Shown: positions 26,729 to 55,830, counted from the first letter of the stretch. The stretch is 55,830 nucleotides of DNA from a virus (IMGVR_UViG_3300048818_000025:1-55830); one strand, 5' to 3'. Program-made: numbers and translations. The notes: generated by a model not told the origin, from the letters alone.

Positions 26729-27076
26729 ATGCGAGTTCAATGGGAACCAAAAATAGGCCCCGCCGCAATTGTCGGTGTATTGAGCATTGTCGCGACTTTG
26801 CTATCTGTTGGTGTGCTTTGGGGAAATGTGACTAGCAGACAAGATACTACTCTTGACGCCATTAAAGCAGTTATTACTACACAAGAAAAATTTTGGAATA
26901 TTGTTGGCACGATGGATAAAAATGTAGGTGATATAAAAACGTCACAAGCAACAATGGTTGCAAATTTTAATTCACATACTCGCGAAGATGATGCATTTGA
27001 AAATACGGTCAAGGCTGCAATTCAAGATCACGAAAACAGGCTTCGCATGATTTCTCAGCCTCCGGTGCGACCGTGA
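26729..27076 (+). CDS. N-terminal TM plus coiled-coil membrane protein (lysis module)
   Basis: Single N-terminal hydrophobic helix followed by a helical segment. Confidence 0.6.
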   Translation: MRVQWEPKIGPAAIVGVLSIVATLLSVGVLWGNVTSRQDTTLDAIKAVITTQEKFWNIVGTMDKNVGDIKTSQATMVANFNSHTREDDAFENTVKAAIQDHENRLRMISQPPVRP

Positions 27077-35635: not shown

Positions 35636-36213
35636 ATGGCAAACTCACCAAAGCGAGATAATGAAACGCAAAGTTCCTATGTGATCCGTCTCATTCAAGA
35701 GGAGGAGCGCGAGCGGTGTGCTAAGATTGCAGAGAATTGGGCTTATCCTCCGGTTGAAACTGCCTCTGGAATTGCCGCCGCTATTCGCAAGCAAGTCTCT
35801 TAACAAATCCAGACTGACAAAATGATTATAGTTGCTTGCAAATGTGGATGGGAAGGCGACCAAGAACTATTGGTTGAAGTGAAGGGCTGTGACGGCAAAT
35901 ACTGCCCTCATTGTGGCAAATGGTTTGCAAGGTGGCCTGCAAGGGCAATAGTCATGGAAGATATGAGAGACGCCACGGGAGAGTTCAAATGACCGCAGCC
36001 TCCTTGCGCGAAATGGCCTACCGCATGTGTAATTGGAGCGCATACGATCTGATTAAGGCTGGTGTGCTGGTCGCGGATAGCAAGGGTGAGCCAGCAGTCG
36101 GCGGATCGGACTGGAAACGCTTCAACATCGACCCTTGGACATTCATCATTAAGCTGCCGGACGACCGACTTGCAAATCTCGCATCACTCATCGATGCGCG
36201 GACTATAAAATAG
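35636..36213 (+). CDS. Small genes 35636-35803, 35822-35992 (CxC/CPHC zinc finger), 35989-36213
   Basis: Coupled ORFs; EERERCAKIAE motif in the first. Confidence 0.55.
35796..35819 (+). repeat. 24-bp direct repeat, copy 1
   Basis: TCTCTTAACAAATCCAGACTGACA; 22/24 identical to 38255-38278. Confidence 0.75.
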
Positions 36214-36253
36214 TGCAACGATGCACCTTTGCTGCCACTTAGAAAGCAGACTC

Positions 36254-36754
36254 ATGCCAAACCCGATTTCATCTTGGACCGACGAGCGAACGTTTCTTGC
36301 GCGTGAGCTTTACGAATCTGGAAAGCATAGCAATGCGCAGATTGCTCGTCGGCTAGGTGGCGTGAGCCGGAATGGCGTCATAGGAAAAGCAAACCGCGAA
36401 GGTTGGGTAAATCCTAATCCTAAACGCGGTGGCACAAAGCCTGGAGAGAAAAGACCGCGAGCCGCTGGCTGGAGCCGCAAGAGTGCGCTATCAATATTCG
36501 GCAATCTATCTCGCAATGATCCTGGCGAAGCTTCCCTTCCCGCTCAAATCACCCCGCCTGAGTTTCTTGCTCTAACACTGGTGGAGCTTGGCAATCGACA
36601 ATGCCATTATATCCCAGGCAATGACCGCCTTTACTGCGGGCAGCCGACTGAGGGAGAATCCTCATATTGCGGATGGTGCAGAAAAATAATATACCAGCCT
36701 ATGTACAGAAGTCATGGGCGATTAACTTTAGTTCCAGTAAACAGTAAGGGGTAA
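36254..36754 (+). CDS. gcrA: GcrA-family cell-cycle regulator
   Basis: WTDER...S.AQIARRLGGVSRNGVIGK..R; L.L.EL...QCHYI.G....YCG......SYC..C. Confidence 0.88.
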   Translation: MPNPISSWTDERTFLARELYESGKHSNAQIARRLGGVSRNGVIGKANREGWVNPNPKRGGTKPGEKRPRAAGWSRKSALSIFGNLSRNDPGEASLPAQITPPEFLALTLVELGNRQCHYIPGNDRLYCGQPTEGESSYCGWCRKIIYQPMYRSHGRLTLVPVNSKG

Positions 36755-36756
36755 AA

Positions 36757-37383
36757 ATGGCCTACTTGGAATCCGAACCAAATTCAGTTCAGCGCGAATT
36801 TCGGCAGGCTCATATTGAGCGACGATTGCGAATAGCCTCGGCAGCTAGGGTTGATAGGCCGATAAATCTCAAGTTCAAGAATGGGATCGACCCATCCATA
36901 GTTAAACGGATTGAGATAAAATCTGTTGATAAAGAGCAAGAAAATATAAACTCTATTCATATCAAAGAGTTAATGGAAAAGTGCATAGCTCTAGAACTTC
37001 AATATAAACAGCTTATGCACAAGTTTTTTCCGCTTGAAACCGCTCCAGATACCCCAGAACCTACCATTTTGATCCGCAAGCCAAGCGTGGCAGAAATAAT
37101 AAAAGAGGTCGCGTTATTTTCGGGATTTACGCGGCTAGATATTCTCTCGCCACGAAGGGAAAAAGAGGTCTGCCGGGCGCGGCAAATATCAGTTTACTTG
37201 GCTAAGAAATTTACCCTACGTAGTTTCCCGGAACTCGGCAGAATATTCGGGCGCGATCATTCTACTCTCGTCCATTCTAGTCAGAAGATCGAGAAAAATC
37301 GCGCAGTTGATCCAATATTGGATGATAATATTAAAGAGCTAGAACTTAGAATTTCTATCATCGCGTCTAAGACTGCACTGTAA
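36757..37383 (+). CDS. Protein with a DnaA C-terminal DNA-binding HTH
   Basis: DILSPRR...V.RARQI..YLA..FT.RSFPELGRIFGRDHSTLVHS. Confidence 0.85.
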   Translation: MAYLESEPNSVQREFRQAHIERRLRIASAARVDRPINLKFKNGIDPSIVKRIEIKSVDKEQENINSIHIKELMEKCIALELQYKQLMHKFFPLETAPDTPEPTILIRKPSVAEIIKEVALFSGFTRLDILSPRREKEVCRARQISVYLAKKFTLRSFPELGRIFGRDHSTLVHSSQKIEKNRAVDPILDDNIKELELRISIIASKTAL

Positions 37384-37387
37384 TCGG

Positions 37388-38080
37388 CGTACAATAAAAC
37401 TGCACCGCGTTACTAAGCCGGGCCGGTTGACTGCCGTCCATTGCTCAGACTTGCCGCGTACAAAATCGACGCATGGCGAAATTGGGCTTTACGATATGCC
37501 AGGTGATATTATCAAGGCCCATATAGAAAACGGGTGGACCTACCACAGCCGAATTACTGTCTGGAAAGACCCTGTAGTGGAAATGCAGCGCACCAAGGCG
37601 CTAGGGCTGCTCTATAAGCAGCTACAGAAAGACGCTACGCGGTCTAGGCAGGGGATGCCGGACTATGTTTTGGTGTTTCGTAAGACCCCGGACGTAGAGC
37701 AGTCCAGCGACCCTGTGGGGCAGGATGCGGCCCATTTCCCGGTTGACCAGTGGCAGCGTTGGGCTTCCCCGGTTTGGATGGATATTAACCAAACCAATGT
37801 CTTGAATGTCCGTATGGCGAAAGAGGACAAAGACGAAAAGCATCTATGCCCGTTGCAATTAGATTTGATCGATCGGGCAATTTACCTTTGGACCAATCGA
37901 GACGATATTGTTCTTTCACCTTTTATGGGCATTGGGTCTGAGGGTGTCATGGCCCTTAAATGCGGGCGTAAATTTGTTGGTGCCGAGCTTAAGCAGTCCT
38001 ACTACCAGCAAGCTATCAAGAATTTAGAGTTTCAGGAATCTGAAAGTGCCGGAGGGGATTTGCTGACAGGTGCAGCGTGA
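37388..38080 (+). pseudogene. N4/N6 DNA methyltransferase, 5'-truncated
   Basis: KPGR..AVHC, WKDP, HLCPLQLD, VLSPFMGIGSEG present; catalytic SPP(F/Y) motif absent; in-frame stop at 37340. Confidence 0.7.
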
Positions 38081-38262
38081 CGCCGGAACGAAAAGTTGAA
38101 TCTGCTTTAGATAATTGGTTTCGCGGCGAAGGATGGACGCTAGATATTTCTGGCGGCGATCACATCGCCAACCAATTCTATGATGATGAAAGTGACGAAG
38201 GATACGAGATTAGCTTGAACTTGACCGAGCTAGCCAAATCAATCGTCACAGAAATCTCTTAA
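38077..38262 (+). CDS. Hypothetical acidic protein
   Basis: GTGA overlap with the methylase stop. Confidence 0.55.
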   Translation: MTPERKVESALDNWFRGEGWTLDISGGDHIANQFYDDESDEGYEISLNLTELAKSIVTEIS

Positions 38263-38278
38263 CAACTACAGACTGACA
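38255..38278 (+). repeat. 24-bp direct repeat, copy 2, abutting the island's left end
   Basis: TCTCTTAACAACTACAGACTGACA. Confidence 0.75.
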
Positions 38279-38284
38279 GTTGGC

Positions 38285-38954
38285 CTATTTTAATAGAATT
38301 GTGAGTGCTATGGTAAACAATCCGCAAACTATGAACCATTCCGCTGCTGCGCTTTGCATATCGGCCTATTCTGACTTAAGGGCAGCGACGGCAATGCGCC
38401 TCGCTCTCACCCGGCAAGCTGGCTTGTAGCTATCCTCTTTTCGGTCGCGTAGAGGCAGGTCCGCGATCTTCTGCAACGCCTTCCGCAACCGCGTCACGGT
38501 CAAGGCTAAATGCACTATGCGTTCCTGGCGCGTCACGGCGGGGTAATCCTACTGCTTGACCTTCTCAAATCGAAGGCTGTGGAATTTAGCAAATTCGGCG
38601 ACGGCTTTCAGGTTAGGCAAGTCAACGTCCGCATTCTGCACAGCACCAGTCCAGACCTTATTCGAGCGGCCATTGCCATGCTGGTCGCAAGCGATTAGCT
38701 CGCCGCATAGGCGCTCGCCTTCATAAAACCGAACCGTTGTGCATTCTTGGCGCGGCATTGGGCTATTCCTTCAACTTTAGAAGTGCATTGAGACAAGCGT
38801 TAAGTTCAATCTCGTCGCGTTCCGTCCATGGGGCCATTCCGTAATTGAATGTGCAAACTTCTCGATCCCATGAAGCGTGGATAGTGCGCCGATTACGATC
38901 AGGTTTGCCACCAAGTAGCGTCTGCAATACAAAATATGGCGGCAGCGTAACCAT
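38285..38954 (-). CDS. Left-array genes 38285-38359, 38366-38536, 38549-38758, 38763-38954
   Basis: Each ends in TAG within a junction motif, with the next start 4-12 nt later; the two leftmost read by hand. Confidence 0.6.
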
Positions 38955-38971
38955 CGGCGGGGCCTCTATAT

Positions 38972-39307
38972 TCAACGGGTGGGTGGTGCTGGTAGCAGCA
39001 TCCAATAAGTCGGATTTACGAGGGACAGCAATTCAGCTTCAAGCGACCCCTCGTACCAGCCAGCGGGGGCGAAATCGCCGTCCTCGTCGTAGTCATGCTT
39101 TGGTAGGTCGTCGCGATACTGCGCGTGCATGGACCGCCACTTGCCGAGCGAGTTGAAAAACCCGACCAGCAACAGCCGATCCTTCGGCGCTGTCTCAATC
39201 GGTTTCCACTCGTCGCTTTTGGCTTTTCCGGGTAGCTGGCAAATATCGGCAACGTCATGATCGTGTTGCAGATGATCGCTCAGTTGTGATGCTAGCGTTT
39301 CGGTCAT
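38972..39307 (-). CDS. DUF551-like protein
   Basis: WKPIETAPKD...PTYWMLLPAPP. Confidence 0.7.
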   Translation of the reverse strand: MTETLASQLSDHLQHDHDVADICQLPGKAKSDEWKPIETAPKDRLLLVGFFNSLGKWRSMHAQYRDDLPKHDYDEDGDFAPAGWYEGSLEAELLSLVNPTYWMLLPAPPTR

Positions 39308-39317
39308 GGCTGCGGGC

Positions 39318-39780
39318 CTATTTCGCTAGGTTTTGGATTTGCGTTTCTAGGTGGCGCACATCGGCCTCGCAGCCGCACGCCTTGGCATCGGCAAGCTCTT
39401 TAGTGAGCCGATTTAGCTTGGCCTGTTTTCGGTCCTGTGCGGTCATTTTCGGGCCTATTCTAACTGATCGCGGAGGTCGCTGACGGCTTCCGCTTCCGTC
39501 TTGCCGTAGCCAATGGGGCGGCCCGGCTCATAGCCATCCTCAACCGCCGACCAATCAAACGATCTTATCGGAATTGGTGGATAAATATGGGCGGTGACTA
39601 TTTTCATGCCGCCATTTTCACCTTCGCCAAAATGGCCTGATTGGTGAGTTTGACATTCAGCTTAAGGTTATTTGTTGCGAACGATAGGGCTGCGGGAAGC
39701 GTCCAAAATCCCAATTCATCGCCCCGCTCTGAAATCTTGAGGAACCAGCAGTTGTTCCGGTAATCAATGGTGGTGGTCAT
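39318..39780 (-). CDS. Left-array genes 39318-39446, 39455-39607, 39604-39780
   Basis: Read by hand; TAGGCCCG junctions at 39318 and 39455. Confidence 0.6.
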
Positions 39781-39808
39781 TTGTGCTCTCCGTTTCCGAT
39801 AAATATAC

Positions 39809-39829
39809 AATACGCCAATTTGGCGTATT
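39809..39829 (-). promoter_or_regulatory. Perfect palindromic operator inside a leftward promoter
   Basis: AATACGCCAA-T-TTGGCGTATT between TTGCAA and TATATT, just after the HTH gene. Confidence 0.7.
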
Positions 39830-39837
39830 TGCAATAG

Positions 39838-40047
39838 CTATCTGCGCAACTTTATTGCTTTCTTTTGGAGCCTGTTTAGGGCCATCCGGTCCTTACCAAC
39901 GGCCAGCAAAACCATAGAAACGGCCAGTGGTGGGCCTTCTGAAGCCCAACGCTGGCCGCTGCGGGCGCTGGTGCCAAATAGCTCGCCTGCAGCTTCCTGG
40001 GTAAGCCCAAGGGCCTCAATACGGCTGCGGTAGGCTTCTGGCGACAC
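39838..40047 (-). CDS. XRE-like HTH regulator, homologue of 27710-27904
   Basis: MSPEAYR..IEALGLTQ..AGELFG...RSGQRW. Confidence 0.75.
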   Translation of the reverse strand: MSPEAYRSRIEALGLTQEAAGELFGTSARSGQRWASEGPPLAVSMVLLAVGKDRMALNRLQKKAIKLRR

Positions 40048-40053
40048 GGCGGC

Positions 40054-40314
40054 CTAATCTAACAGGGTTAGAGTTTCGCGGGCCTTGGTAAGACAGCCCT
40101 GCATATCGGTGTGGTGTTCGGTGATCCATTCCAGCGCATCCTTCGCCGCGACCAGCCTCATATCGCGCTCCATCACAAGATCAGCAATCTCGGCCTCGAC
40201 TTGCTTGCGCTCGGTAGCTATTGCGCCAGCGACCTGATCCCTCAACGCGCCGGAATGAGCCGCGACTATCGCGTTAGCCTTGTCAAAATCCTCGTTGTGG
40301 ATAGCTACGGGCAT
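40054..40314 (-). CDS. Hypothetical protein (array gene)
   Basis: Bounded by junction motifs on both sides. Confidence 0.6.
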   Translation of the reverse strand: MPVAIHNEDFDKANAIVAAHSGALRDQVAGAIATERKQVEAEIADLVMERDMRLVAAKDALEWITEHHTDMQGCLTKARETLTLLD

Positions 40315-40329
40315 TTCGGGCCTTATTTG

Positions 40330-40785
40330 TTAGATTGCTTCGCCAATAATCTCACGCTCAAGAGCGCCGTATTTTTCATCGTCACCGACGACTTGGCCCT
40401 TGAGCGCGACGATCCACCACCGCTCACCTTTCCACTTTGGCGGAATAAGTGTGGCGTGGAGAGTGCCTTTTTTGCAGAGGTCGAGCGGCCCAGGCGAAGT
40501 GTGAATAACGCCGGGCGCTGGCGTCTCGACTTTAACACCGCCGTTTGCCGGGGAGCCGTCCGGGTTAGACCGCCAGAACGCAATCTTGGCACCGTCCCGC
40601 GTTAGTTCGTTCATGCGTTTCTGCTGGCGCTCGTTCCACTTGGCGGCGAAGTAAGCAATACAGGACTGCCAATAGTAGCCGTCGGCGGAGCCGTCGCCGG
40701 AGCCGTAGCCGTAGCCGTAGCCGTAGCCGTCGCCGTTTGCCGGGAAGCCGTCCGGCAGCTTACCTTGCAGGACTACCGGGACCAC
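40330..40785 (-). CDS. GYG-repeat protein, paralogue of 49578-50201
   Basis: GDGYGYGYGYGSGDG; TLHATLIPPKWKGERWW shared. Confidence 0.75.
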   Translation of the reverse strand: MVPVVLQGKLPDGFPANGDGYGYGYGYGSGDGSADGYYWQSCIAYFAAKWNERQQKRMNELTRDGAKIAFWRSNPDGSPANGGVKVETPAPGVIHTSPGPLDLCKKGTLHATLIPPKWKGERWWIVALKGQVVGDDEKYGALEREIIGEAI

Positions 40786-41075
40786 GGCGCGGCCTCCCAA
40801 GCAACAGCCGCTGCGGGCGTAACTTCGGCAACGCAGGTAATATCCCGCAGTTCAATATCTGCCGCAGGCCCGACGCGAGCGCCGTCAACCGGCCCCATTG
40901 AAGCTAGGCCGAGAAAGCCCTTATTCGCAGTCGGCCACGAAATGCAGTTACGGGCGGCGCGGAGCTTAATCATCACGCCGTCAGTCTTGATCGCGTAGCC
41001 GAAGAACACGCCCCGGTGCGAGGTTGTGACCAGCACGGCGCGTTCGTTCTTTTTGCGGTTAGGGTGGTTTACCAT
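40773..41075 (-). CDS. Conserved phage protein, paralogue of 49282-49590
   Basis: RAV.VTTSHRGVFFGY...KGFLGLASMGP...GPAADIEL. Confidence 0.75.
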   Translation of the reverse strand: MVNHPNRKKNERAVLVTTSHRGVFFGYAIKTDGVMIKLRAARNCISWPTANKGFLGLASMGPVDGARVGPAADIELRDITCVAEVTPAAAVAWEAAPWSR

Positions 41076-41128
41076 CTTGGCTCCTATGCCCCTGAATGCC
41101 GAGGCGCACATTGCCCGAAGGTTCGGGC

Positions 41129-41302
41129 CTACTTTGACTTCGGTGGGGTATCGAGTTCGGTTCGCAGCGCATCCATTTCCGTCACCAGCGCCTCGATACG
41201 TTTGCGCGTGGTGCCGATGTAGGTGTCCTTGTACGTTGGCGACTTGAGGTAGTGGCGAAGGCCCTCTACCGCGTCAAACAGCACATCCGAAACCATCGCC
41301 AT
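41129..41302 (-). CDS. Small protein divergent from the recombinase
   Basis: GGGAG RBS; ends at the innermost TAGGCCCGAA junction. Confidence 0.6.
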   Translation of the reverse strand: MAMVSDVLFDAVEGLRHYLKSPTYKDTYIGTTRKRIEALVTEMDALRTELDTPPKSK

Positions 41303-41310
41303 ATCTCCCT

Positions 41311-41376
41311 GTTGACCGTATATAGGCAAAGCCTTGACAACTTGTCAATAGCCCTATACGCATAGTTGACAACTTG
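41311..41376. promoter_or_regulatory. Island central divergent promoter and candidate recombinase-binding region
   Basis: Palindrome TTGACAA-C-TTGTCAA (41334-41348); TTGACAACTTG repeated at 41334 and 41366. Confidence 0.7.
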
Positions 41377-41388
41377 ATAGGGTTCGGA

Positions 41389-42033
41389 ATGTCCACCGAT
41401 TTACTGCCAAAAGGGTTTTTAGTCGGCTATGCGAGAGTTTCCACAGAAGATCAAAAGCTCGACCTCCAGCTTGATGCACTTAGATCAGCCGGGGTGCTAC
41501 CTGATAATTTGCACGTCGAAAAAATCTCAGGCGCTTCCGCTAAACGTCCGGCTCTTGATCTTGCTATTAAAGACCTTCGCCAAGGCGATACATTGGTCGT
41601 GTGGCGCTTGGATCGTTTGGCCCGAAGTATGCGCCAACTCTACATGCGCCTCGACCAAATTTACGCAAAGGGGGCGAATTTCCGAAGCATTACGGAAGCC
41701 TTCGACTTCGGCACAGTCAGCGGCAAATTCGTCCTCGGAATCCTGGGACTTGTCGCTGAGTTTGAACGCCAGATCATCGCCCAAAGAACGTCAGCAGGCA
41801 TCGCGGCGCTCAAGTCTCGCAAGGGCAAGGAATACAAGTGGGGACGTACATTGCACATGACACCGGAGCGCGTGGCGCTCGTTGGGGACTATCTCAACGG
41901 TCGCAATGGCAAGCCACAGTTGAGCGGACCGAAGATCGCCGCGAAGCTCAAGGTTTCTACGGCCTCAATCTATGGGTATTGGAAACAGGCAGGCAAGGGC
42001 CGGTTCACTCGCCGGAAAGCTACGCCGAAATGA
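41389..42033 (+). CDS. Small serine recombinase (resolvase/invertase family)
   Basis: GYARVSTEDQ..DLQ..AL, GDTLVVWRLDRLARS, AEFER..I..RT..G; C-terminal HTH (IAAKLKVSTASIY). Confidence 0.95.
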   Translation: MSTDLLPKGFLVGYARVSTEDQKLDLQLDALRSAGVLPDNLHVEKISGASAKRPALDLAIKDLRQGDTLVVWRLDRLARSMRQLYMRLDQIYAKGANFRSITEAFDFGTVSGKFVLGILGLVAEFERQIIAQRTSAGIAALKSRKGKEYKWGRTLHMTPERVALVGDYLNGRNGKPQLSGPKIAAKLKVSTASIYGYWKQAGKGRFTRRKATPK

Positions 42034-42551
42034 CCGAAAGGCTTTACGTGTACGTCGCAGAAAGCTCCAAGGGCTTAATCAAGATCGGCTTCTCGGCTAA
42101 CCCGAAACGCCGCGTGAAGTATTTGAGCGGAACCGTGCTTCATGCACACCGTCCGGTTACTTTCTTGCGAGCTAAGCGCATGGACGCAATAGCTGCATAC
42201 AAGGTGGAAAAGTTCACTCAGTACCTTCTAGCCGAACACGCAGCCCCTATGACTTACCCCGGCCTTGGGCCTTCGATGGAGTGGTTTCAATGCTCACAGG
42301 AAGCCGCCTTTAAGGCCCTAAGAACCGCCGTTCGTTGCGTGCAGAACGCAACAGAGTATTTCGGGCATGATCGGTTTAACTGGCGGCGAGCCGTGCCGTT
42401 TATAAAGGCACGAAAAGGATTGGTGTTGCCGCATAAATTCGACATGTGGCTTACTCGGCAAATCGAACTATCTAAGGGCGAGCGCCTTGATGCGATGATT
42501 GATGTTCAACGTAAGATGCACAATCTATGCGCTACGGCGCAGAACAATTAG
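42030..42551 (+). CDS. GIY-YIG / T5orf172-like protein
   Basis: YVYV......IKIGFS.NP..R...L and EWF motifs; ATGA-coupled to the recombinase. Confidence 0.75.
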   Translation: MTERLYVYVAESSKGLIKIGFSANPKRRVKYLSGTVLHAHRPVTFLRAKRMDAIAAYKVEKFTQYLLAEHAAPMTYPGLGPSMEWFQCSQEAAFKALRTAVRCVQNATEYFGHDRFNWRRAVPFIKARKGLVLPHKFDMWLTRQIELSKGERLDAMIDVQRKMHNLCATAQNN

Positions 42552-42560
42552 GAGACTGGC

Positions 42561-44008
42561 GTGGCCGACGTGAAGCTCACAGAACTCGAACCGCAATGGC
42601 TCACGCGGGACGGCAAGCGCGTGGGCGTGATATTTCGCAATCCGTCGCCAGAGCATCGGAAGTGGCGGGTGACTTGCTTCGCTGCGCCGACGCCGAATGA
42701 CGATCAAGAGGCAATCGTTCACGCGGCTGTCGGGGAGACGGATATGTGGCAGGGCTGCAATCCGGCGTCGGGCTGGAAATTTGAAGGCGGTATAGACGGC
42801 GCTACATTCGAGACGCTGACAATCACGCCTTCGCTCGATGGTGGTCAGCATTGGTGGCACGGATTTGTTACCGGCGGGGTTTGCAGGTGAGCGACAAGTG
42901 CCACATGTGTGGGAGGCCGCCCTCGGAACATTCTTGGGACACCCGCTCCATATGCAACTTCTATCTCGGCGCGGCCGGGTCAAATCTCACGAAAGACCAG
43001 GAGGACGCAGTCTATGCCGCATATCTCGGCATCTGCTTTCTTCAAACGATGTGCCGCAGAGTGAACCTGAAACTTGGTGAGCAGCGTGCACAAGAATTGC
43101 TTACCGAATTAGGCGTCGCCTTCCCGTTCATTCCCGAACGGGTCGGTTTGTCCGCCTTACGTTGAATATGCAGGAGTTTAGCGTGACGATCAAAGAGGCA
43201 ATAGAAATTCTCACGGAAGAAGTGGTTGCGCGCAAGACGAGCCCGAATAGTTGTTCGGAAGAAGTTACTCAGGCAATTGAAACGCTTTTGTCCGTCATCA
43301 CACAGAAAGCTTAGGAGAATTTTGCTGTGACCGTAGCAACCGATTTTAAGCGCGCCTACTTGCAAGAAAACAAACGCGCCAACTATGCCGAGGGCGCGCT
43401 GCGCAACATCGTTCTGGCATGGAACAAACTCAAGCCCGGCAATTACTCCAAGGACGTATGGGAAACGTGGCTGGAAGAAACTCTCAAGCCTGCCGTAGTG
43501 GCTGGCGAGGTTGCGCTGACTGTTCTAAATAATCAGCGAAAGAATTAGGAGTTTTTAGATGGCGTGGACCGCAAAGCAGAAGGCCGCGTTCAAAAAGGAA
43601 CGGCGGAATTTCAGCGCCAAGACCTATCTCAAGGTCAAGAAGGAATTTGACCGGCAACGCAAGCTGCCGCGCAACGCGCCTGTCTGGTACATGAACAAGA
43701 CTGAATGGAACGCAATATCGTCGGCGCTCAAGATTGCTGCCGATCACTCTAAATAATTAGGAGCCGAGGCGGTGTACGAGAAAATGAGTGCCAGCGAGAT
43801 TGTTTTGCAAGCCCTCATTTGGGGCGAGGAAAGCATTACCGAAATGATAAACGGCACCCATGAATCAGAACCGCACCGCGCCGAATTGGTCGAGTTGCGA
43901 AGGCAGATGCGAGTTTACAGGAAGCGGCGTTACGGCAAGCCGGTTGATCCCTTCGCAAACGCCAAGCTTGTCAGCGCCTTTGATCTGCCCATTACGAAAG
44001 AGGGATAA
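42561..44008 (+). CDS. Right-array genes 42561-42890, 42887-43165, 43183-43314, 43327-43548, 43559-43756, 43772-44008
   Basis: Short ORFs separated by (T)TAGGAG junctions; the first has an LT.TPS....WHG motif. Confidence 0.65.
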
Positions 44009-44009
44009 C

Positions 44010-44792
44010 GTGGTTTCTCCGGTTCCAAAGCACCTACGCGCCGATGACGAGTACGACGCTATCGCTGGCGAGCTGCGAGATCATCGGTATGGCCTAGAGG
44101 TTGACCGATCAAAGGGAGTTGACCTTCCCGGCATCGGCGCGCACCGCGCCAAGTACGCGCCCGGCCTTGCAACGGCACTCTTGGCGCTGGCCGGGACCGA
44201 TGACGTTGGCGACCCGATGTGCGGGACCGGGACGCTTGGACGAGAAACCGGGAAGCTAGTTGCCCTGAACGACATTGATTACGGCATGTGGAATTTTTTG
44301 GAGCCTCTTGGGAAAAATGGGTGCCAAGTCACGTTTGGTCCCGCTACCGAGATTAAGTGGCGGCGCGAAGTCTGCATCTTTTCGCCGCCGTATTATCCGA
44401 AGGCCGATCGCTGCAAGCCGTGCGCTCACAATGACGCGAGGCGCGGCCCGGTCGTCGGCTTCCGTGATTCCTATTCTGGCGACCATCCTCAATTCGTCGG
44501 CAACCCCGGCGGCGTGAACGCTATTCTAAAATATCGCCAGCAGATGACCGCGATCTATGACCACCTTAAAACGGTCTGCGACCGCATGATTGTAGTCACA
44601 AAAAACTGGACGCGGCTTGGCGTGGAAATGCGCCTCGACCTCGACACGATATTGATGGCGCAATCGGTCGGCTGGTACTGCGAAGGGCGGAACGGATTTG
44701 AGCCGTCGCCGTCTTTGTGGTCGCGCTACAATAAGCAACGCGGCGGCGGTGTCACCGTCGAAGATGTGTTGATGTTCTCGAAACCCCGTTGA
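44010..44792 (+). CDS. SAM-dependent (N4/N6-type) DNA methyltransferase-like protein
   Basis: DPMCGTGT SAM-binding motif, NDID, then FSPPYY catalytic motif. Confidence 0.75.
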   Translation: MVSPVPKHLRADDEYDAIAGELRDHRYGLEVDRSKGVDLPGIGAHRAKYAPGLATALLALAGTDDVGDPMCGTGTLGRETGKLVALNDIDYGMWNFLEPLGKNGCQVTFGPATEIKWRREVCIFSPPYYPKADRCKPCAHNDARRGPVVGFRDSYSGDHPQFVGNPGGVNAILKYRQQMTAIYDHLKTVCDRMIVVTKNWTRLGVEMRLDLDTILMAQSVGWYCEGRNGFEPSPSLWSRYNKQRGGGVTVEDVLMFSKPR

Positions 44793-44809
44793 AGAATTAG
44801 GAGAATTTA

Positions 44810-44998
44810 ATGCGCTGGCGTCACAAGAAGCGCGGAACGACTTACGAGGAAATTGGTCGCGCCAAGCTCCAAGCCTCTGACACTGGCGGTATGGGCGACC
44901 ATCATCCGATGGTAGTTTATCGTGGTGAGGATGGTCAGCTTTGGGTGCGGCCAGAAGATGAATTTGAAGATGGCCGCTTCGAGCGGCTGGTGGATTAG
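44810..44998 (+). CDS. DUF1653-like small protein
   Basis: WRHKKRG..Y...MVVYR...GQLWVRP..EF.DGRFE. Confidence 0.7.
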   Translation: MRWRHKKRGTTYEEIGRAKLQASDTGGMGDHHPMVVYRGEDGQLWVRPEDEFEDGRFERLVD

Positions 44999-45007
44999 GA
45001 GTTTGAA

Positions 45008-45649
45008 ATGGCTACCAACACCCCGTTCTATCCCGGCGATACTCACTGGTCCTACGTCAAGCGTTGGGCGTGGCTGATGTGGGTGCAGTATTGGTCGCCG
45101 CTCGGGTCGAGCGTCTCGACGCAGTATGTTTGTGCAGTTACCAAACCAAAGGAACTGAAAAATGAAATACTTGAACGACAAGTGCCAGCGTTGTGCCAAC
45201 AGCCGAGGACTTCACGCCGCCGTCATCAAGACTAATACGCAACAGCGATGGCCGCTCGTGTGCGAAGCGTTCAAAGAGGCTGATGAGAATTAGGAGAATG
45301 AAACATGCGCGTCGAATTTACTTGGTCTAAGTGGTGCGTCCTATTCACACAGCAGCCGACGCCATCCGGTCTTGATCGGTGGTTTACAATCGGTCCGGCC
45401 CATTTTCGGTGGACCGCCAAGCAACTTCGCCCGCTGTCATAGGCGGTCAGTCCCCGTCGCCCGGTGAAGAAAGCCGGGCACCGTTTGAATTTAGAGGAGT
45501 TTGCCGTGGTCATAGAAAACATTGGCCTTGGCTTCCACTGGCATAAAATCAGACACGCCTATAAAGAATTTTACGATATGTGGTCAGGATATTGTAGCGG
45601 ACCAAGTGAGTGCGTGTGGATTGTGCCGGGAACGGCACTAGAGGACTAG
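45008..45649 (+). CDS. Right-array genes 45008-45235, 45162-45293, 45305-45442, 45506-45649
   Basis: Partly read by hand; TAGG junctions; the last is a paralogue of 51618-51776. Confidence 0.55.
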
Positions 45650-45846
45650 GAACGACCATGCCGATCACGTCAGAGCAGCGCGAAATTCGCAATCTGAAAA
45701 AACACCTTCGCGGGCTGACGGCGCAGGTCATGGAGACGATTGCTAGGATAGACAGGATTATGAAAATTCCGGAAGGACCATTGCGCGGCAAGATGATTGC
45801 CGAGGCGACGAACGCGCTGGAAATGACAAATCATGCTTATCCGGTT

Positions 45847-46917
45847 TCAACATGCAGGCTCTAGCGGTTGATGTGTTCCATGACTGACATTCGGGTGCGT
45901 CCACTCGCCGCTATACAGCCCGTCATAGGTCGGGCTTTCGCCGTTTGCGCCGATGCCCAAGAGCGAGCGGAAGGCATTGAATGGGTAGAAGCGGCGATTG
46001 AACCGGAAGGTAAATTCGTTGAGGTAGGCTTGCAGGTGCTTCGGCTCGACGCGCCCGTGGTGCGTGCCTTGCAGCCAAGCTTTGAGGTTGCTGAAAACAA
46101 GGTGAACGATAGGCAGGTATTCTTCGGCAACATCGGGCTTGTTGGACTCGACCACGGGCATGTGAGCGTAGCCGCGATCAGCAAGCGAGTTGTAGCCGCC
46201 CCAAGCGTCGGTAACGACCATGTTGGACGTAGGATCAACCGCAGCCTCTACAAAGCCGCACAGCGACTTGGCGGTACGGTCGGGGGCGATTTCCAGCCTG
46301 AGACGGCCAGCATATCGGCCACCGCGCCGCATGGGCTTGTCGCCCTTCTTGGCCGGGCGCTGCCGAACCTCGACGGCGGCGACTACGAGCGTCTTGTCGT
46401 CGGCATGGGGACCTTTGCCCTCGCCCCGCGTCACGCCGCCGATGTAGGTTTCGTCAATCTCGATATGGTCGCGGCCCGAAATGCTGCCACCGATCCGGTC
46501 GCGGTCTTGGCGCACCATACCGGCTCGCAGCTTGTGCAGGATGCCGAAGGCGGTTTCGTATCGGGTAAGGCCAAGCTGGCGCTGAAATTGAACGGCGGAC
46601 AGGCCGGGCGTCATGCTGGAAATGAGGTAAGCCCCCCAAAACCAAGTCGTCAGCGGCGTATGGGTGCGTTCCATGACCGTGCCGACCGTCAGGGAGGTTT
46701 GCTTACGGCATTTGCGGCAGGCCACCACATGCGGACGCGCCGCAGAACAGTACAGCGGCTCGCCAATGGCCTTGCAGTGCGGGCAGCGGAAGCCGTCAGG
46801 CCATTTTGCGCCTTCCAGATAACGAGCGCAGGCCGCGTCGTCAGGGAACAGCTTTTGGAACTGCGGCAGGGACTTGGGGAATGGCAGTTTTTCCCATTGG
46901 TGAATGTCTTGGATCAT
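45847..46917 (-). CDS. IS1595-family DDE transposase
   Basis: Zn ribbon CPHC..CRKC; IEIDETYIGG, VVTD, HLQAYLNEFTFRFNRR. Confidence 0.95.
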   Translation of the reverse strand: MIQDIHQWEKLPFPKSLPQFQKLFPDDAACARYLEGAKWPDGFRCPHCKAIGEPLYCSAARPHVVACRKCRKQTSLTVGTVMERTHTPLTTWFWGAYLISSMTPGLSAVQFQRQLGLTRYETAFGILHKLRAGMVRQDRDRIGGSISGRDHIEIDETYIGGVTRGEGKGPHADDKTLVVAAVEVRQRPAKKGDKPMRRGGRYAGRLRLEIAPDRTAKSLCGFVEAAVDPTSNMVVTDAWGGYNSLADRGYAHMPVVESNKPDVAEEYLPIVHLVFSNLKAWLQGTHHGRVEPKHLQAYLNEFTFRFNRRFYPFNAFRSLLGIGANGESPTYDGLYSGEWTHPNVSHGTHQPLEPAC

Positions 46918-46920
46918 GGC

Positions 46921-47181
46921 CTATTTTCCTGTTTTGGCCTGATAAGCGTCGGCGGCGTCGGACGGGTTGTATCCAAGGTCTTGATATTCAGCCAAGCCGC
47001 GCCGTTCCTCAGTTGTGATGACGTGGCCGGGGTTACGGTAGTCCAAAAGCGCCTCGCAAGCATCGCCGACCCACAACATGCGCTTCATGCTGAGTCCGCT
47101 CATGCGGACGTTCCCGAGCTTGTTGACCATATCCTGATGCGCCGGGCCGTGCCCCTCATGGTGTTTCGAGGTACTTGCCAC
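46921..47181 (-). CDS. IS passenger gene
   Basis: Inside the TIRs, upstream of and co-oriented with the transposase. Confidence 0.65.
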   Translation of the reverse strand: MASTSKHHEGHGPAHQDMVNKLGNVRMSGLSMKRMLWVGDACEALLDYRNPGHVITTEERRGLAEYQDLGYNPSDAADAYQAKTGK

Positions 47182-47182
47182 G

Positions 47183-47479
47183 TTAGCCTACCTTTCCGGC
47201 AGGATCGGCTATGCGATCCTTTAGCTCGCCCGGTTCAATCGTGGAGTCCTCATGGCTCCAACTATGGCCTGCCCAGTCCGCGACATACCATTTTGTGCCG
47301 TCGCCCGGCACGGTGCGGTCGAGCTTTACCATCGAGCCGTCATGCGAGACAAAAACCTGTTCGGGCGCTAGTTCATCGCGTCGAGCGTACCAGTCGGTCG
47401 TTTTTCCTACGGTATCCACGCCCGTTTGATGGGCTATGCCGCCTCGCGGATCGCTTCCGTGTCCTTTTGCGTCTTTCAT
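47183..47479 (-). CDS. IS passenger gene
   Basis: GGGAG RBS; starts MKDAKGHGSDP. Confidence 0.7.
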   Translation of the reverse strand: MKDAKGHGSDPRGGIAHQTGVDTVGKTTDWYARRDELAPEQVFVSHDGSMVKLDRTVPGDGTKWYVADWAGHSWSHEDSTIEPGELKDRIADPAGKVG

Positions 47480-47813
47480 GTTCAACTCCCGTTAACTACG
47501 AGCCTTTCGGCCTCTGCAATCTATATAGCACTAGTAGGTGCATGTGTCAAGCGGATAAGCATGTGACAAATGACGGCGCGCGGTACTTTGGCCTTGGCGT
47601 AGATTTCCGCAAGGACCGCAAGCCGGGCCGAGACAACGCACCGCCGAAATTTCGTGAAATGCGCGGTATCTTGAAGTCACAATAGGAGTAATCCGTCGAT
47701 TATAACCACAGACAGCGCATCGGCGGCTAAGTGAGTTTGTCTTGCGGTGTTAATGGTCTTTACATCTATTAGTAGCGATTGTGCGGCGTAAAAAACTACG
47801 CTAGAAAAAATCA

Positions 47814-48195
47814 GCGCCGCGCAGGAGGTCTATTTCCTGGCGGCGCAGACCCGAATTGATGCTTGGCGGCTGAAACTCGGGCCAATGACTTAAGAACTAT
47901 ATAGCCTGCGGGCTAGTTCCGGTCAAATCATAAAATCCATGCCGCCAGAAGCCGCCAGAAGGCCCGGGATGCATTTATTTGCATTCTAGGCTCTCGTAGC
48001 AGGGGCGGAACGTGCAGGGTGTAGGGGCGAGGCCCCAACTTGGATGTGCGGCTACGGAAAAGGCCAAGTATGGCTGACGGGACGCTCGGCTCCATTGAGC
48101 AGAATCCTAAGCCACTTCCTCTTGCCTTCCATTGGTTTCCAATGGGGGTAAGGGGGGTGTGGCTTCCGAACACTCTCACCATTGAGCAGGATTAA
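47814..48195 (+). ncRNA. Candidate structured non-coding element upstream of the HNH gene
   Basis: Several stems; long hairpin 48109-48165 relying on G-U pairs; no convincing + strand ORF. Confidence 0.35.
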
Positions 48196-49281: not shown

Positions 49282-49590
49282 ATGAATACTCACCCAAATC
49301 GTACTAAGCGAACTGGCGAACGTGCCGTTATGGTCACGACTTCGCATCGTGGCGTTTTCTTTGGCTATGCCGCCAAAACGGACGGCGCGATCATCAAACT
49401 GCGGCGCGCCCGCAACTGCATCTATTGGGGAACCGATAATAAGGGTTTCCTGGGCCTCGCCTCAATGGGACCGACCAGCACAGCGAAGATCGGTCCCGCA
49501 GCCGATATTGAGCTTTGCGATATTACTTGCGTGGCTGAGTGTTCCGAAGAAGCCACGAAGGCCTGGGAGACGGCCCCATGGAGCCGGTAA
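49282..49590 (+). CDS. Conserved phage protein, paralogue of 40773-41075
   Basis: Near-colinear similarity. Confidence 0.75.
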   Translation: MNTHPNRTKRTGERAVMVTTSHRGVFFGYAAKTDGAIIKLRRARNCIYWGTDNKGFLGLASMGPTSTAKIGPAADIELCDITCVAECSEEATKAWETAPWSR

Positions 49591-50201
49591 TCCTTAAAGG
49601 AGACGCCGCGAAAGCGGCGGCAATTCTTGGCTATGGCTCTGGCTCTGGCTATGGCGATGGCTCTGGCGATGGCTATGGCTCTGGCGATGGCTATGGCTAT
49701 GGCTCTGGCTATGGCGATGGCTCTGGCTATGGCTCTGGCTCTGGCGATGGCTATGGCTCTGGCGATGGCTATGGCTATGGCTCTGGCTATGGCTATGGCT
49801 ATGGCGATGGCTCTGGCGATGGCTATGGCTCTGGCGATGGCTATGGCTCTGGCTCTTATTGGTCCTCCTGTATTGCTTACTTTGCTTCCAAGTGGACTGA
49901 CGCTGATCGCGCTCGATTTACCGCAGCTAAAAAATTAAAAACCAAGATCGCTATCTGGCGATCAACCGATAAAGGCTTGCCGTCGAATGGTGGTGGCAAG
50001 ATTGAACCAGCGGCTCCCGGCGTTATCCATACTGCACCTGGACCGCTCAATCTATGCCACAAAGACACACTCCACGCCACCCTTATTCCTCCGAAATGGA
50101 AAGGCGAGCGGTGGTGGGTTGTGGCACTCCACGGCGAAGTCATTGGTGACGATGAAAAGTATGGCTGCCTGAAACGAGAAATTATTGGCGAATGCCTGTA
50201 A
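49578..50201 (+). CDS. GYG/GSG/GDG-repeat protein
   Basis: Long Gly-X repeat; C-terminus shared with 40330-40785. Confidence 0.75.
   Translation: MEPVILKGDAAKAAAILGYGSGSGYGDGSGDGYGSGDGYGYGSGYGDGSGYGSGSGDGYGSGDGYGYGSGYGYGYGDGSGDGYGSGDGYGSGSYWSSCIAYFASKWTDADRARFTAAKKLKTKIAIWRSTDKGLPSNGGGKIEPAAPGVIHTAPGPLNLCHKDTLHATLIPPKWKGERWWVVALHGEVIGDDEKYGCLKREIIGECL
49629..49856 (+). repeat. Coding hexamer tandem repeat GGC(TAT/TCT/GAT)
   Basis: Directly visible. Confidence 0.95.
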
Positions 50202-50572
50202 TTTTCCAACACAGAATCTACCGCTTAGACCTAGTTGCGAATCCGTCTGTCCTTTATCTTTTTGGGGACAACGAACAGCGAGTAGGCCTAGGCGGTCAAG
50301 CCGCTATGATGCGCGGCGAACCAAATGCGGTTGGCGTTTGCACCAAAGCTACGCCGGGTGGCCCGAATGAGTTTTGGGGTGATGATAGGTTTGAGGAAAA
50401 TTGCACCGTTATTGATGCAGATTTAACGCGAGCCTTTAACCATGCAAGGAAAGGCGGCAACATCGTTATTCCTTCCGATGGTCTAGGGACTGGGCTTGCC
50501 CAACTCGACACTAAAGCGCCGAGAACTTTCAAATATTTGTCAGGGCGGCTTTCCAAACTGGAAAGAACCTAA
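50192..50572 (+). CDS. Conserved phage protein (FGDN...GGQA family)
   Basis: LYLFGDN..R.G.GGQA..MRGEPNAVG..TK; DGLGTGLAQL. Confidence 0.7.
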   Translation: MPVIFQHRIYRLDLVANPSVLYLFGDNEQRVGLGGQAAMMRGEPNAVGVCTKATPGGPNEFWGDDRFEENCTVIDADLTRAFNHARKGGNIVIPSDGLGTGLAQLDTKAPRTFKYLSGRLSKLERT

Positions 50573-54736: not shown

Positions 54737-55744
54737 ATGGCGGGACTGAACTATGCAAAATGGTTTGCTCCCGCCACCGCTTTCCTTATCTCGGTCGCCT
54801 TCTGGCCTGGAATTTCAGGCGCAGCCACTTCGCCTCGATGGGCCATCGCTGCCGTCTCTCTCGGCTACTTGGATTGGCGCTTGCTGCCTTTCGTCGCCTT
54901 TTGTTTCTTTGCAGTTGACTTTGACAGCGCCGTTCATTGGGCAATCGTTTGTGCGGCGTTCTGTTGGGGGTTGAATGAAGGACAAGGAACTGGAAGCAAT
55001 ATACGAAAGGTCTGCGCAGCTACGTGCGGAGGCATCGCAATTTCTGGCGTCATTGCCGCCTTCCAATGCTACGGCTTTGAAGGCATTCCCCAACTCGCCA
55101 TCCCAGGCGGATTGTTCCTCAACAAAAACTTCATGGGCGAAGCCGCATGTCTTGCTCTCATCGCCAGTCTACAGTATCGACTATGGCTCCCCGCTCTAAT
55201 ATGCGTTCCGGCCCTGATCCTATCGACGAGCAGAGCTTCCTGGATTGGAGCTATCCTCAGTATTTGCTTTATATTGCCTTGGCGTTGGGCGGCTGGTCTA
55301 TTATTTTTGGCAGCTATTATGCTCTGCGCTGGCTATCTGGCGGGGGTTGAAACGTCGCCAGCCACGTTACTACAGCGCCTTTCACTTTGGCATGACGCAA
55401 TACAGAATTTCCATTGGTTAGGTTCGGGAGCTTACGATTATTCCACCATTCAATACCGCGAACCAAACCTGCACAACGATTGGCTACAGCTAATCTATGA
55501 GTTCGGCATCGTCGGGCTTATTCCTCTCATCGTCGTTTTCATGGCCGGAGGAAATGGCCTGCCTTTCGCTGTGGCACTCTTGGTCATTGGCTCATTCGGT
55601 TTTCCTCTACAGATGCCAGCTACTGCTTGGTTTGCTGCTTTTATGCTCGGGCATTTTGTGGGGCGCGGCCATGATGCGGGCCGAAGTGTTATACGCCCAT
55701 GGCGTCCGAACTGGCGACTTCACAGCCCTTTTAGTCGCGCGTGA
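54737..55744 (+). CDS. O-antigen ligase / O-oligosaccharyltransferase-like (Wzy_C) polytopic membrane protein
   Basis: GLFLNKN, LSTSRASWIG, RLSLW..A, LGSG, LHNDWLQLIYEFGIVG, FPLQ.P motifs; many TM segments. Confidence 0.85.
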   Translation: MAGLNYAKWFAPATAFLISVAFWPGISGAATSPRWAIAAVSLGYLDWRLLPFVAFCFFAVDFDSAVHWAIVCAAFCWGLNEGQGTGSNIRKVCAATCGGIAISGVIAAFQCYGFEGIPQLAIPGGLFLNKNFMGEAACLALIASLQYRLWLPALICVPALILSTSRASWIGAILSICFILPWRWAAGLLFLAAIMLCAGYLAGVETSPATLLQRLSLWHDAIQNFHWLGSGAYDYSTIQYREPNLHNDWLQLIYEFGIVGLIPLIVVFMAGGNGLPFAVALLVIGSFGFPLQMPATAWFAAFMLGHFVGRGHDAGRSVIRPWRPNWRLHSPFSRA

Positions 55745-55830
55745 TTTATACCCGTATTTAAAATACATAGCTCAAGGCCCTGCACGGGCGGGTAGCATTC
55801 AAGACATAATCCGTGCGGTGCGTGAGGACC
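55637..55830. repeat. Terminal redundancy, right copy
   Basis: Matches 1-194. Confidence 0.97.

Follow-up and report, generated by a model that had tools for sequence, protein, structure and literature searches.

A start-associated AGGCC motif at the gene joints of a phage early operon: a possible re-initiation element and boundary of gene cassettes

We describe here a short motif, (A/T)AGGCC(C/G)(C/G) as read on the coding strand, that recurs at the joints between the genes of an early operon in the phage record IMGVR_UViG_3300048818_000025. The DNA analysed, which we call the window, represents one virus record in full (55,830 bases, G+C content 50.7%). The operon, or left arm, lies on the minus strand (38285..41302), runs from about 41300 downwards and consists of 13 small open reading frames (ORFs), namely G1 (41129-41302/41296), G2 (40773-41075), G3 (40330-40800), G4 (40054-40314), G5 (39838-40047), G6 (39604-39780), G7 (39455-39607), G8 (39318-39446), G9 (38972-39307), G10 (38763-38954), G11 (38549-38758), G12 (38366-38536) and G13 (38285-38359). 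Between G5 and G6 a terminator-like hairpin with a T-rich tail (39809..39829, minus strand) divides the arm into two transcription units, headed by G1 (with GGGAG before its start) and by G6 (GGAGAG). A divergent promoter region separates the operon from the gene of a small serine recombinase (41374..42033, plus strand, ATG at 41389; Resolvase N-terminal domain, E = 3e-38), which heads a right arm of small genes. The joints of the right arm (42544..45299, plus strand) have the form AAT-TAG-GAG-N6-9-start, so that the stop codon lies inside a canonical Shine-Dalgarno (SD) sequence; they form the repeat family D2.

Of the 13 ORFs in the left arm, G2 alone has a Pfam assignment (DUF6948). The PHROG match of G1 is to a family of unknown function, those of G5 and G9 are weak, and the other nine ORFs have no match in Pfam or PHROG. 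A blastn search of the arm against the phage collection gave no match and no close relative of the arm. The sharing of arm genes with 44 loci that carry DUF6948 is limited to G2-G3; for G9 we see distant relatives only, and for G4 no relative was found.

An earlier note on this DNA had listed ten strings of the motif on the plus strand. All ten are present, and on the coding (minus) strand they read as stop-start joints, in which the upstream gene terminates with the TAG of the motif. The AGGCC core is found in eight of them (38281, 38361, 38959, 39313, 39448, 40050, 40315 and 41122), while two are degenerate (TAGGAT at 38545 and TAGCCC at 38760). The stop within the motif is TAG (once TAA) and belongs to the upstream ORF; TAG ends 10 of the 13 arm ORFs, as compared to 24 of the 99 genes in the rest of the window under a crude gene model. 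Three copies were grouped as an 18-nucleotide (nt) family, D5, by an independent repeat finder.

The individual joints, all on the minus strand, are as follows in the order of transcription; scores are those of the weight matrix described below. The innermost copy, GTAGGCCCGAA (41113..41132, 12.4 bits), contains the G1 stop TAG (41129-41131). Its GCCCGAA pairs with TTCGGGC in a hairpin at 41113-41128, which had been noticed before and does exist; the motif itself (41122-41132) is followed by this hairpin and by a structured leader of G2, and no start lies at the usual distance. A start at 41111, proposed earlier for this site, was not borne out, as G2, judged by its relatives, starts at 41075 with its own TAGGAG. 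At the G3/G4 joint, AAATAAGGCCCGAA (40315..40328) stands after the G3 stop TAA (40330-40332) and before the G4 ATG at 40314, reading TAA-CAAATAAGGCCCGAA-ATG. The G4/G5 joint, ATTAGGCCG (40050..40058), reads GAT-TAG-GCCGCC-GTG, with the G4 stop at 40054-40056 and the G5 GTG at 40047. At the G7/G8 joint, AATAGGCCCGAA (39448..39459), the G7 stop TAG (39455-39457) and the G8 ATG (39446) are arranged as GAA-TAG-GCCCGAAA-ATG, and at the G8/G9 joint, AAATAGGCCCG (39313..39323), the G8 stop TAG (39318-39320) and the G9 ATG (39307) as AAA-TAG-GCCCGCAGCC-ATG. The G9/G10 joint is of a second flavour, TGA-ATATAG-AGGCCCCG (38957..38974), in which the G9 stop is TGA (38972-38974) and the G10 ATG lies at 38954; the whole reads TGA-ATATAGAGGCCCCGCCG-ATG. 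Next come the two degenerate joints: G10/G11, AATAGCCC, one G short (38760..38767; G10 stop TAG 38763-38765, G11 ATG 38758), and G11/G12, GTAGGATT (38545..38552; G11 stop TAG 38549-38551), where the G12 GTG at 38536 lies 11 nt past the AGG. The G12/G13 joint, AATAGGCCGA (38361..38370, 10.7 bits), reads GAA-TAG-GCCGAT-ATG, with the G12 stop TAG at 38366-38368 and the G13 ATG ending at 38359. Finally, an orphan copy, AAATAGGCCA (38281..38290, 11.2 bits), holds the G13 stop TAG (38285-38287) at the end of the operon, with no start after it. It had been claimed that a start follows at all sites except the innermost one. This is true for eight of the ten sites; it fails at the innermost site and also at 38281, which closes the operon.

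Can this repetition be due to chance? We used a weight matrix of 17 columns (13.8 bits in total), trained on 29 start-linked sites from other phages only. The earlier note had suggested such a scan, and its three top matches on both strands of the window are all joints of the arm, at 39319 (G8/G9, 17.1 bits, the best in the window), 40323 (G3/G4, 16.2 bits) and 39456 (G7/G8, 15.8 bits). With the threshold set at 10.5 bits or above, six matches lie on the coding strand of the arm, as compared to 200 dinucleotide shuffles that yielded 0.5 on average and never more than 4; three matches reach at least 15 bits, where 0.045 are expected from such shuffles. The loose pattern AGGCC-N2-8-ATG is not enriched over the window (16 occurrences, 13.5 expected), and 5 of the 16 fall at joints within the 2 kb of the arm. 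The repetition of the motif is thus confirmed as real and not due to chance. Outside the arm we see two further strong matches to the matrix, both on the plus strand: AAAAATAGGCCCCGC (14.8 bits, 26740-26775), inside or at the start of the ORF 26729-27076, and AAAAGGCCAAGT-ATG (13.5 bits, 48050-48080), in the gap before an HNH gene.

The host of the phage is probably an alphaproteobacterium. We read this from the operon at 36221-38080 (plus strand), which converges on the end of the left arm and encodes a GcrA-like regulator, a protein with a DnaA C-terminal domain and an N6/N4 methylase of the CcrM type; both GcrA and CcrM are characteristic of Alphaproteobacteria. The same operon suggests that the phage may interfere with the cell cycle of its host. 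We took the 3' tail of the 16S ribosomal RNA (rRNA) from an alphaproteobacterial genome (the tail is identical in the three genomes examined) and calculated predicted duplex energies. The eight junction starts have a mean of -4.3 kcal/mol (range -2.7 to -6.4), and random 20-mers of the window reach -3.5 +/- 2.5 kcal/mol. Since the junctions pair no better than random sequence, the claim that they have no SD holds in terms of energy as well. Canonical SD-led coupling, in which at least four bases pair with the 16S 3' tail at 5-10 nt from the start, agrees with the joints in its spacing, and the pairing stays at background. The starts of G1, G2 and G6 (GGGAG, TAGGAG and GGAGAG) reach a mean of -8.0 kcal/mol; G1 and G6, the first cistrons, where the motif is missing, reach -8.0 and -9.6 kcal/mol with their strong SDs, and seven right-arm starts behind TAGGAG have a mean of -8.1 kcal/mol. 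The joints of both arms have TAGG in common, and differ in the letters that follow.

These numbers bear on the alternative that the motif is an ordinary weak ribosome-binding site, its AGG or AAAGG pairing with the outermost 3' nucleotides of 16S rRNA, and the C and G that follow being a matter of base composition only. The AGG does stand at the position of an SD, the GAAAGG or AGAAAGG found in G+C-richer relatives is complementary to the CCUUUCU end of alphaproteobacterial 16S rRNA, and many genes of this phage have weak SDs. On the other hand, the pairing energy in this window is at background, and the two conserved C after AGG are not able to pair with the tail. The host evidently reads full SDs, as these stand before the first cistrons and in the other arm. 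Moreover, AGGCC is rare at the junctions of a Rhizobium genome in comparison to four-letter SD cores (20 versus 155 in 400 kb). This last count is noisy, with 789 "junctions" called in 400 kb at 65% G+C, and Rhizobium serves as a proxy and is not the host; it replaced simple pattern counts in four genomes, which were confounded because AAG-GCC is a common Lys-Ala codon pair. With equally noisy junction calls in the phages, the ratio of AGGCC to SD cores is 67 to 86 in the arms divergent from the recombinase and 9 to 104 in the arms on its own side. We conclude that the motif is probably not a general signal of the host, and consider a plain weak ribosome-binding site distinctly improbable.

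A stretch of 16S rRNA outside the tail was considered as another possible reader. It is the exact complement of AAGGCCCG(G) in two of the three 16S genes examined (the chance for an 8-mer is 2.4%). This candidate was rejected, because only AAGGCC is constant across phages, and the letters that vary after it break the pairing. A comparable arrangement is known from caliciviruses, where the eukaryotic termination-reinitiation signals called termination upstream ribosomal binding sites (TURBS) pair with an exposed loop of 18S rRNA. The two are alike in being short and in lying directly before a stop-start junction, where they would detain the terminating ribosome for a restart; they differ in that no more than the 6-mer AAGGCC is constant here, that the variable letters fail to keep the pairing with 16S rRNA, and that the 16S stretch in question is base-paired in the ribosome. 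Other searches at the joints gave nothing. There is one promoter-like site in the arm, where 1.9 are expected, which does not fit a promoter at each joint; no common RNA fold was found around the joints, with no hairpin at nine of the ten, and no Rfam family matches them.

Next, we asked whether the motif is found in other phages. An exact 16-mer search gave five IMG/VR loci, two of which (records G006 and G007) represent one phage lineage. In this lineage the motif occurs about 10 times, on one strand and between small ORFs, with copies such as GAAGGAATAGGCCCG...ATG, and the 18-mer TTGAATATAGAGGCCCCG of the G9/G10 joint of our phage is found in record G006 as well, where it joins unrelated genes. 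The two phages have no blastn match, and the sole tblastx match with a significant E-value of its own is the recombinase (52% identical). In G006, too, the recombinase heads a TAGGAG arm that is divergent from the AGGCC arm. A second scan with the exact motif gave two chance matches, inside genes of the low-G+C contigs L104 and L107, and these were discarded.

Using the recombinase as a query against viral contigs and genomes, we collected 160 loci. Start-linked matches to the matrix number 63 on the strand divergent from the recombinase and 13 on the strand of the recombinase, and all nine loci with at least three such matches have them on the divergent strand. Each lineage has an extended flavour of its own: GAAGCGAAAGGCCAGGACCG-ATG in L133, L134 and L126, AATAAAGGCCC(C/G)... 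in L191 (a contig from the bin of a Beijerinckiaceae genome), TGAGAAAGGCCGGACCG-ATG in L135 and GAAGGAATAGGCC in L112. Homologues of the arm gene G12 give an independent view. In one locus (L276) the homologue lies in an AGGCC arm with an adjoining divergent recombinase (58% identical), whereas in another (L275), whose record is complete and gave no recombinase homologue, the joints are plain ATGA overlaps. The motif thus goes with the arm and not with the genes. In summary, the same start-linked motif occurs in at least 12 other phage arms, around unrelated genes, each divergent from a small serine recombinase gene; in the motif-bearing phages the recombinase's own arm has TAGGAG joints.

Over 13 arms we counted 68 sense and 4 antisense matches. 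In 53 of the 68 sense matches a start codon (ATG 42, GTG 6, TTG 5) lies 4-10 nt past the end of the AGG, with a mode of 8; the six arms outside the training set have 34 sense and 2 antisense matches, with 25 start-linked. While the distance to the start is narrow, the distance from the motif to the upstream stop varies from -1 to -14. Phages of higher G+C content have the stop 2-14 nt upstream of a motif that begins with AAAGG (GAAAGG or AGAAAGG), which is why we regard the TAG as a local economy and not as the essence of the motif. Neither the promoter region nor the cistron that heads a transcription unit has a copy of the motif. A core of five to six letters is kept across phages with recombinases 41-58% identical and a G+C content from 50 to 63%, with differing flanks, and in all lineages the two C after AGG, which cannot pair with the 16S tail, are the most conserved letters after the core.

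The spacing also bears on the idea of a transcriptional pause at each start, in which the elemental pause would be matched by the GG of the motif together with the TG of the ATG, and would keep RNA polymerase close to the ribosomes. The elemental pause has the consensus G(-10)...Y(-1)G(+1), and at most joints a GG is indeed found about 10 nt before the TG of the start codon. However, AGG and start would have to be 7 nt apart for this consensus, a distance seen in only 5 of the 53 start-linked matches, whereas the mode is 8-9; the CC is left unexplained as well. We hold such a pause to be very improbable.

The joints also coincide with the boundaries of shared blocks. Comparing L133 and L134, we find a 581-nt block of 100% identity that starts and ends at copies of the motif; a replaced segment after the shared block ends at a motif copy in L134 only, and the joints of the two loci match each other over 23-35 nt. 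Identical joints of 18 and 16 nt link unrelated genes in our phage and G006, and in our phage and L113, respectively. The DUF6948-G3 cassette, in common with the 44 loci mentioned above, begins at 41133 and ends near 40340, that is, at joints. Contigs from lake metagenomes match single arm genes and end at joints as well (G12, 38366-38535; G5, 39810-40052); this comparison covered four DNA runs and gave only short contigs of other phages. Judged from these alignments, the block boundaries show that exchange appears to happen at the joints, and both homologous and site-specific recombination are compatible with it. The boundaries are observed directly; the recombination behind them is what we infer.

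Potentially, exchange is all there is to the motif: it could be a functionless linker, spread and homogenised by homologous or microhomology exchange at the joints, its tie to the start being only a consequence of the short gaps. The ends of the mosaic blocks at the joints, the identical joints of 16-35 nt between unrelated genes within and between phages, and the fact that the arm genes are ORFans that differ between phages would all be expected then. We find this unlikely nevertheless, as the core of five to six letters survives at 41-58% recombinase identity and from 50 to 63% G+C with differing flanks, the spacing to the start is narrow (mode 8-9) even for short gaps, and the opposite arm keeps a different and plainly functional joint, TAGGAG.

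Some further features of the window may be added here. A second DUF6948 gene and a G3-like gene, followed by a DUF7831 gene, lie at 49282-50572 on the plus strand with 71% DNA identity to 40339-40734, therefore the cassette is present twice, on opposite strands. Within G3, a 12-nt tandem repeat (40675-40735, minus strand) encodes a stretch rich in Gly-Tyr/Gly-Ser; contigs from metagenomes accumulate at this repeat and show many joints and variants in length. An insertion sequence of the IS1595 family is found at 45832-47563, inside the phage; it has a transposase gene (45847-46917), two small ORFs and inverted ends of 25 nt with 84% complementarity, and it contains a TAGGCC-ATG joint at 46923, which is probably unrelated to the motif of the arm.

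The earlier note had taken the motif as evidence for a DNA-level site of the recombinase. The neighbourhood of the two is indeed conserved: two routes that do not depend on the recombinase (the exact 16-mer and the G12 homologue) both reached arms that adjoin its homologues, 52% and 58% identical. The link, however, consists in conserved neighbourhood only. Known sites of serine recombinases (res, hix or att) are made up of two inverted half-sites around a central dinucleotide and span about 26-40 bp. By inspection of all sites we found no dyad symmetry beyond GGCC, and no inverted half-sites around a central dinucleotide at the inspected sites. The stretch 41140-41400, which takes in the promoter region, has no matrix match of at least 9 bits, and a different palindrome is found there. 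No inverted repeats that bracket the arms, as for an inversion, were found. Taken with the start-locked spacing and the single orientation, a DNA site for the recombinase seems not to be supported.

We also mapped the presence of the motif on a tree of the recombinases, which includes 70 of 83 rows, the other 13 being short matches that we left out. The label is scattered, with 10 changes, and 61 of 500 shuffles do as well; it is a crude label, as short contigs and arms with one or two copies were scored as negative. Several of the closest relatives of the recombinase have one to three copies only. We therefore read the link to the recombinase as shared descent of an early-region scaffold.

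A wider version of this idea, in which the motif would be a DNA-level binding site, in one orientation, for some regulator of the phage (the neighbouring serine-recombinase-like helix-turn-helix protein being the obvious candidate) and serve stoperator-like silencing of the divergent arm or integron-like insertion and excision of single-gene cassettes, is in our opinion doubtful. It could explain why the recombinase is the only gene common to all nine motif-bearing loci compared and why both independent routes led to it, why the motif is confined to the arm divergent from the recombinase gene, why the flavours are extended in a lineage-specific way, as expected of a reader that co-evolves, and why two orphan copies stand without a start; the recombinase also retains the region of its catalytic-serine motif. 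It is harder to reconcile with the lack of a dyad and of paired half-sites, with the mere 5-8 letters conserved across phages, with the absence of a copy from the promoter and operator region 41310-41390 with its different palindrome, and with a spacing tied to the start codon instead of the stop. No inverted repeats bracket the arms, the label is scattered on the recombinase tree, many close relatives of the recombinase have few or no copies, and the breakpoints in L133/L134 lie at the edges of shared joints, as homologous exchange would also give. We keep a DNA-level role as a minority possibility.

The most far-reaching variant, to which we give very little credence, is a two-armed gene-cassette system around the serine recombinase, with AGGCC(S)(S), S being C or G, as the DNA or RNA address at which this enzyme or a partner adds, removes or silences single genes. 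If true, this would be a phage counterpart of the integron, with a serine enzyme and a site linked to the start codon. The attC site of integrons is a long imperfect inverted repeat that folds as single-stranded DNA and is used by a tyrosine integrase; here, nine of ten joints have no hairpin, and the neighbouring enzyme is a serine recombinase.

We favour a different interpretation, to which we assign a probability of roughly one half: the motif would be an RNA-level, start-associated re-initiation element between cistrons, and at the same time a joint for the exchange of gene cassettes. According to this, (A/T)AGGCC(C/G)(C/G), which precedes almost every internal cistron of the early operon by 4-9 nt from its start, would act on the mRNA. 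As the phage, at 51% G+C, writes the first letters of the motif as TAG, the same letters end the preceding gene. Ribosomes would load at the canonical SDs of G1 and G6, the first cistrons of the two units, and a ribosome that terminates at a joint would restart a few bases downstream, being passed from gene to gene, so that the whole string of genes may hang on one or two entry points. The AGG would contribute a marginal pairing with 16S rRNA only; CC(S)(S) is not explained by rRNA pairing and would probably be read by a factor of the host or the phage, or by a feature of the ribosome. We infer both the re-initiation and such a trans-acting factor from the arrangement of the joints: a spacing locked to the start and variable towards the stop, a single orientation, and first cistrons with strong SDs and without the motif fit an mRNA signal in termination and re-initiation. 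Since a joint of 10-35 nt is repeated between unrelated genes, it may also be a place to swap, add or remove cassettes of single genes.

Several observations weigh against this interpretation. The 18 large structural genes of the phage also pair weakly with the 16S tail (mean -4.1 kcal/mol), therefore weak SDs are not special to the left arm. The copies at 38281 and 41122 have no start at the usual distance, and a purely translational element needs neither of them. The lock to the start is weaker evidence than it seems, because in gaps of 10-20 nt any site lies near a start; stoperators, as the portions of their published description used here present them, are sites at the DNA level and yet locked in orientation and found in short gaps (PMC9283540). 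Weak rRNA pairing alone leaves the conservation of CC(S)(S) without an explanation. Last, the recombinase is, within 6 kb, the sole protein that the nine motif-bearing loci have in common, which keeps a DNA-level link alive.

How does the motif compare to known systems? Most likely it is an SD-poor start-associated re-initiation joint that doubles as a cassette boundary, and the nearest known case is the start-associated sequence (SAS) of Cluster K mycobacteriophages. As far as the parts of the original account used here describe it, SAS is a 13-bp asymmetric repeat with 11-19 copies, 3-7 bp before mostly ATG starts, in one orientation and in the non-structural half of the genome; the upstream stop sometimes lies inside, and conserved letters are unable to pair with rRNA (Pope et al. 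2011, PMC3203893). Its role was still given as unverified in the sections drawn on here from a 2025 survey (PMC12699233). Going by these accounts, both elements are short asymmetric repeats of about 10-19 copies in one orientation in the non-structural part, stand a few bases before mostly ATG starts of unrelated gene families, sometimes with the upstream stop inside, and have conserved C-rich letters after AGG that cannot pair with 16S rRNA. The differences are that SAS, as described there, has a full AGGAG core and the present motif has AGG only, with rRNA pairing at background; that the host here is likely alphaproteobacterial and no 17-bp inverted repeats, as in the extended SAS (ESAS), were seen in our phage; and that the present motif is confined to one of two divergent arms, beside a serine recombinase gene. 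The SAS consensus itself is not enriched in the window (11 matches of the 13-bp consensus with up to three mismatches, 10.65 expected); only two matches have two mismatches, the largest deviation allowed for members of SAS, and one of them is the ribosome-binding site of G2 (41078-41090).

Stoperators, the repressor sites of L5 and other Cluster A mycobacteriophages, are similar in that they are asymmetric, lie in short gaps, follow the direction of transcription and have many copies per genome; they are described as 13-mers that occur at the early promoter as well as in both arms and to which a dedicated monomeric repressor binds (PMC9283540). The orientation in our 13 arms does follow transcription (68 sense versus 4 antisense). 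Compared with that description, the present motif has no operator copy at the early promoter, lies in one arm only instead of having more than 20 sites in both, conserves 5-8 letters, and has a spacing tied to the start. The promoter early stem-loop (PeSL) elements of T4-type phages, again going by part of their published description, are likewise repeated regulatory joints between small non-essential ORFans, and exchange between their copies shuffles genes; they consist of a strong sigma-70 promoter and a terminator hairpin, whereas the joints here have neither and lie inside operons (PMC2839356). Textbook coupling with a stop embedded in the SD, as seen in the right arm, has in common with the motif that stop and start are a few bases apart, that the stop is part of the signal and that the first cistron has a strong SD; in the left arm the SD core is replaced by AGGCC(S)(S), without useful rRNA pairing. 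We found no description of the present motif in the open-access literature.

Around the left arm we made a number of additional observations. The structured leader of G2 (41076..41112, minus strand) contains a hairpin, whose 8-nt loop is invariant and whose stem covaries; after it come a G-rich stretch, invariant too, and the TAGGAG at 41080-41086. The leader is also conserved upstream of the DUF6948 gene in L003-L040, with the loop GCGCCUCG and a 4-bp stem, after which come the invariant UCAGGGGC and the SD. Over 18 phages, all 63 stem cells pair and compensatory changes occur at all four base pairs, which none of 500 shuffles matched. The loop has a CCUC that could mask the G-rich stretch; the leader matches no Rfam family. 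In the divergent promoter region there is a perfect 7+7 palindrome, TTGACAA-C-TTGTCAA (41334-41348), with a second partial copy at 41366-41377. The palindromes overlap the likely -35 box of the left-arm promoter, the -10 box being TATATA at 41319-41324 as judged by eye, and they are a candidate operator for a regulator. At the other end of the arm, a 27-nt direct repeat (35793-35819 and 38252-38278, plus strand, 89% identical) covers the TAA stops of two plus-strand genes, and its second copy adjoins the end of the left arm. Finally, the ends of the record, 1-194 and 55637-55830, repeat each other with few mismatches (matching contexts at 46/55682 and 138/55774), and the record is nevertheless classed as linear in IMG/VR.

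What do these joints mean for the phages that carry them? One group of mycobacteriophages has been known since 2011 to carry start-associated sequences, and the present motif is an independent example from a very different host group. Here the missing SD core separates the unexplained C-rich letters from ordinary rRNA pairing, and the opposite arm, with its canonical joints that have the stop in the SD, is a built-in control in the same phages. A comparative study is possible, as at least 13 phage lineages carry the motif next to unrelated genes. If there is a specific reader, it would be a new way to start translation, or to regulate all accessory genes of an operon together. Should the joints be points of exchange as well, they may help to explain how phages trade in single small genes.

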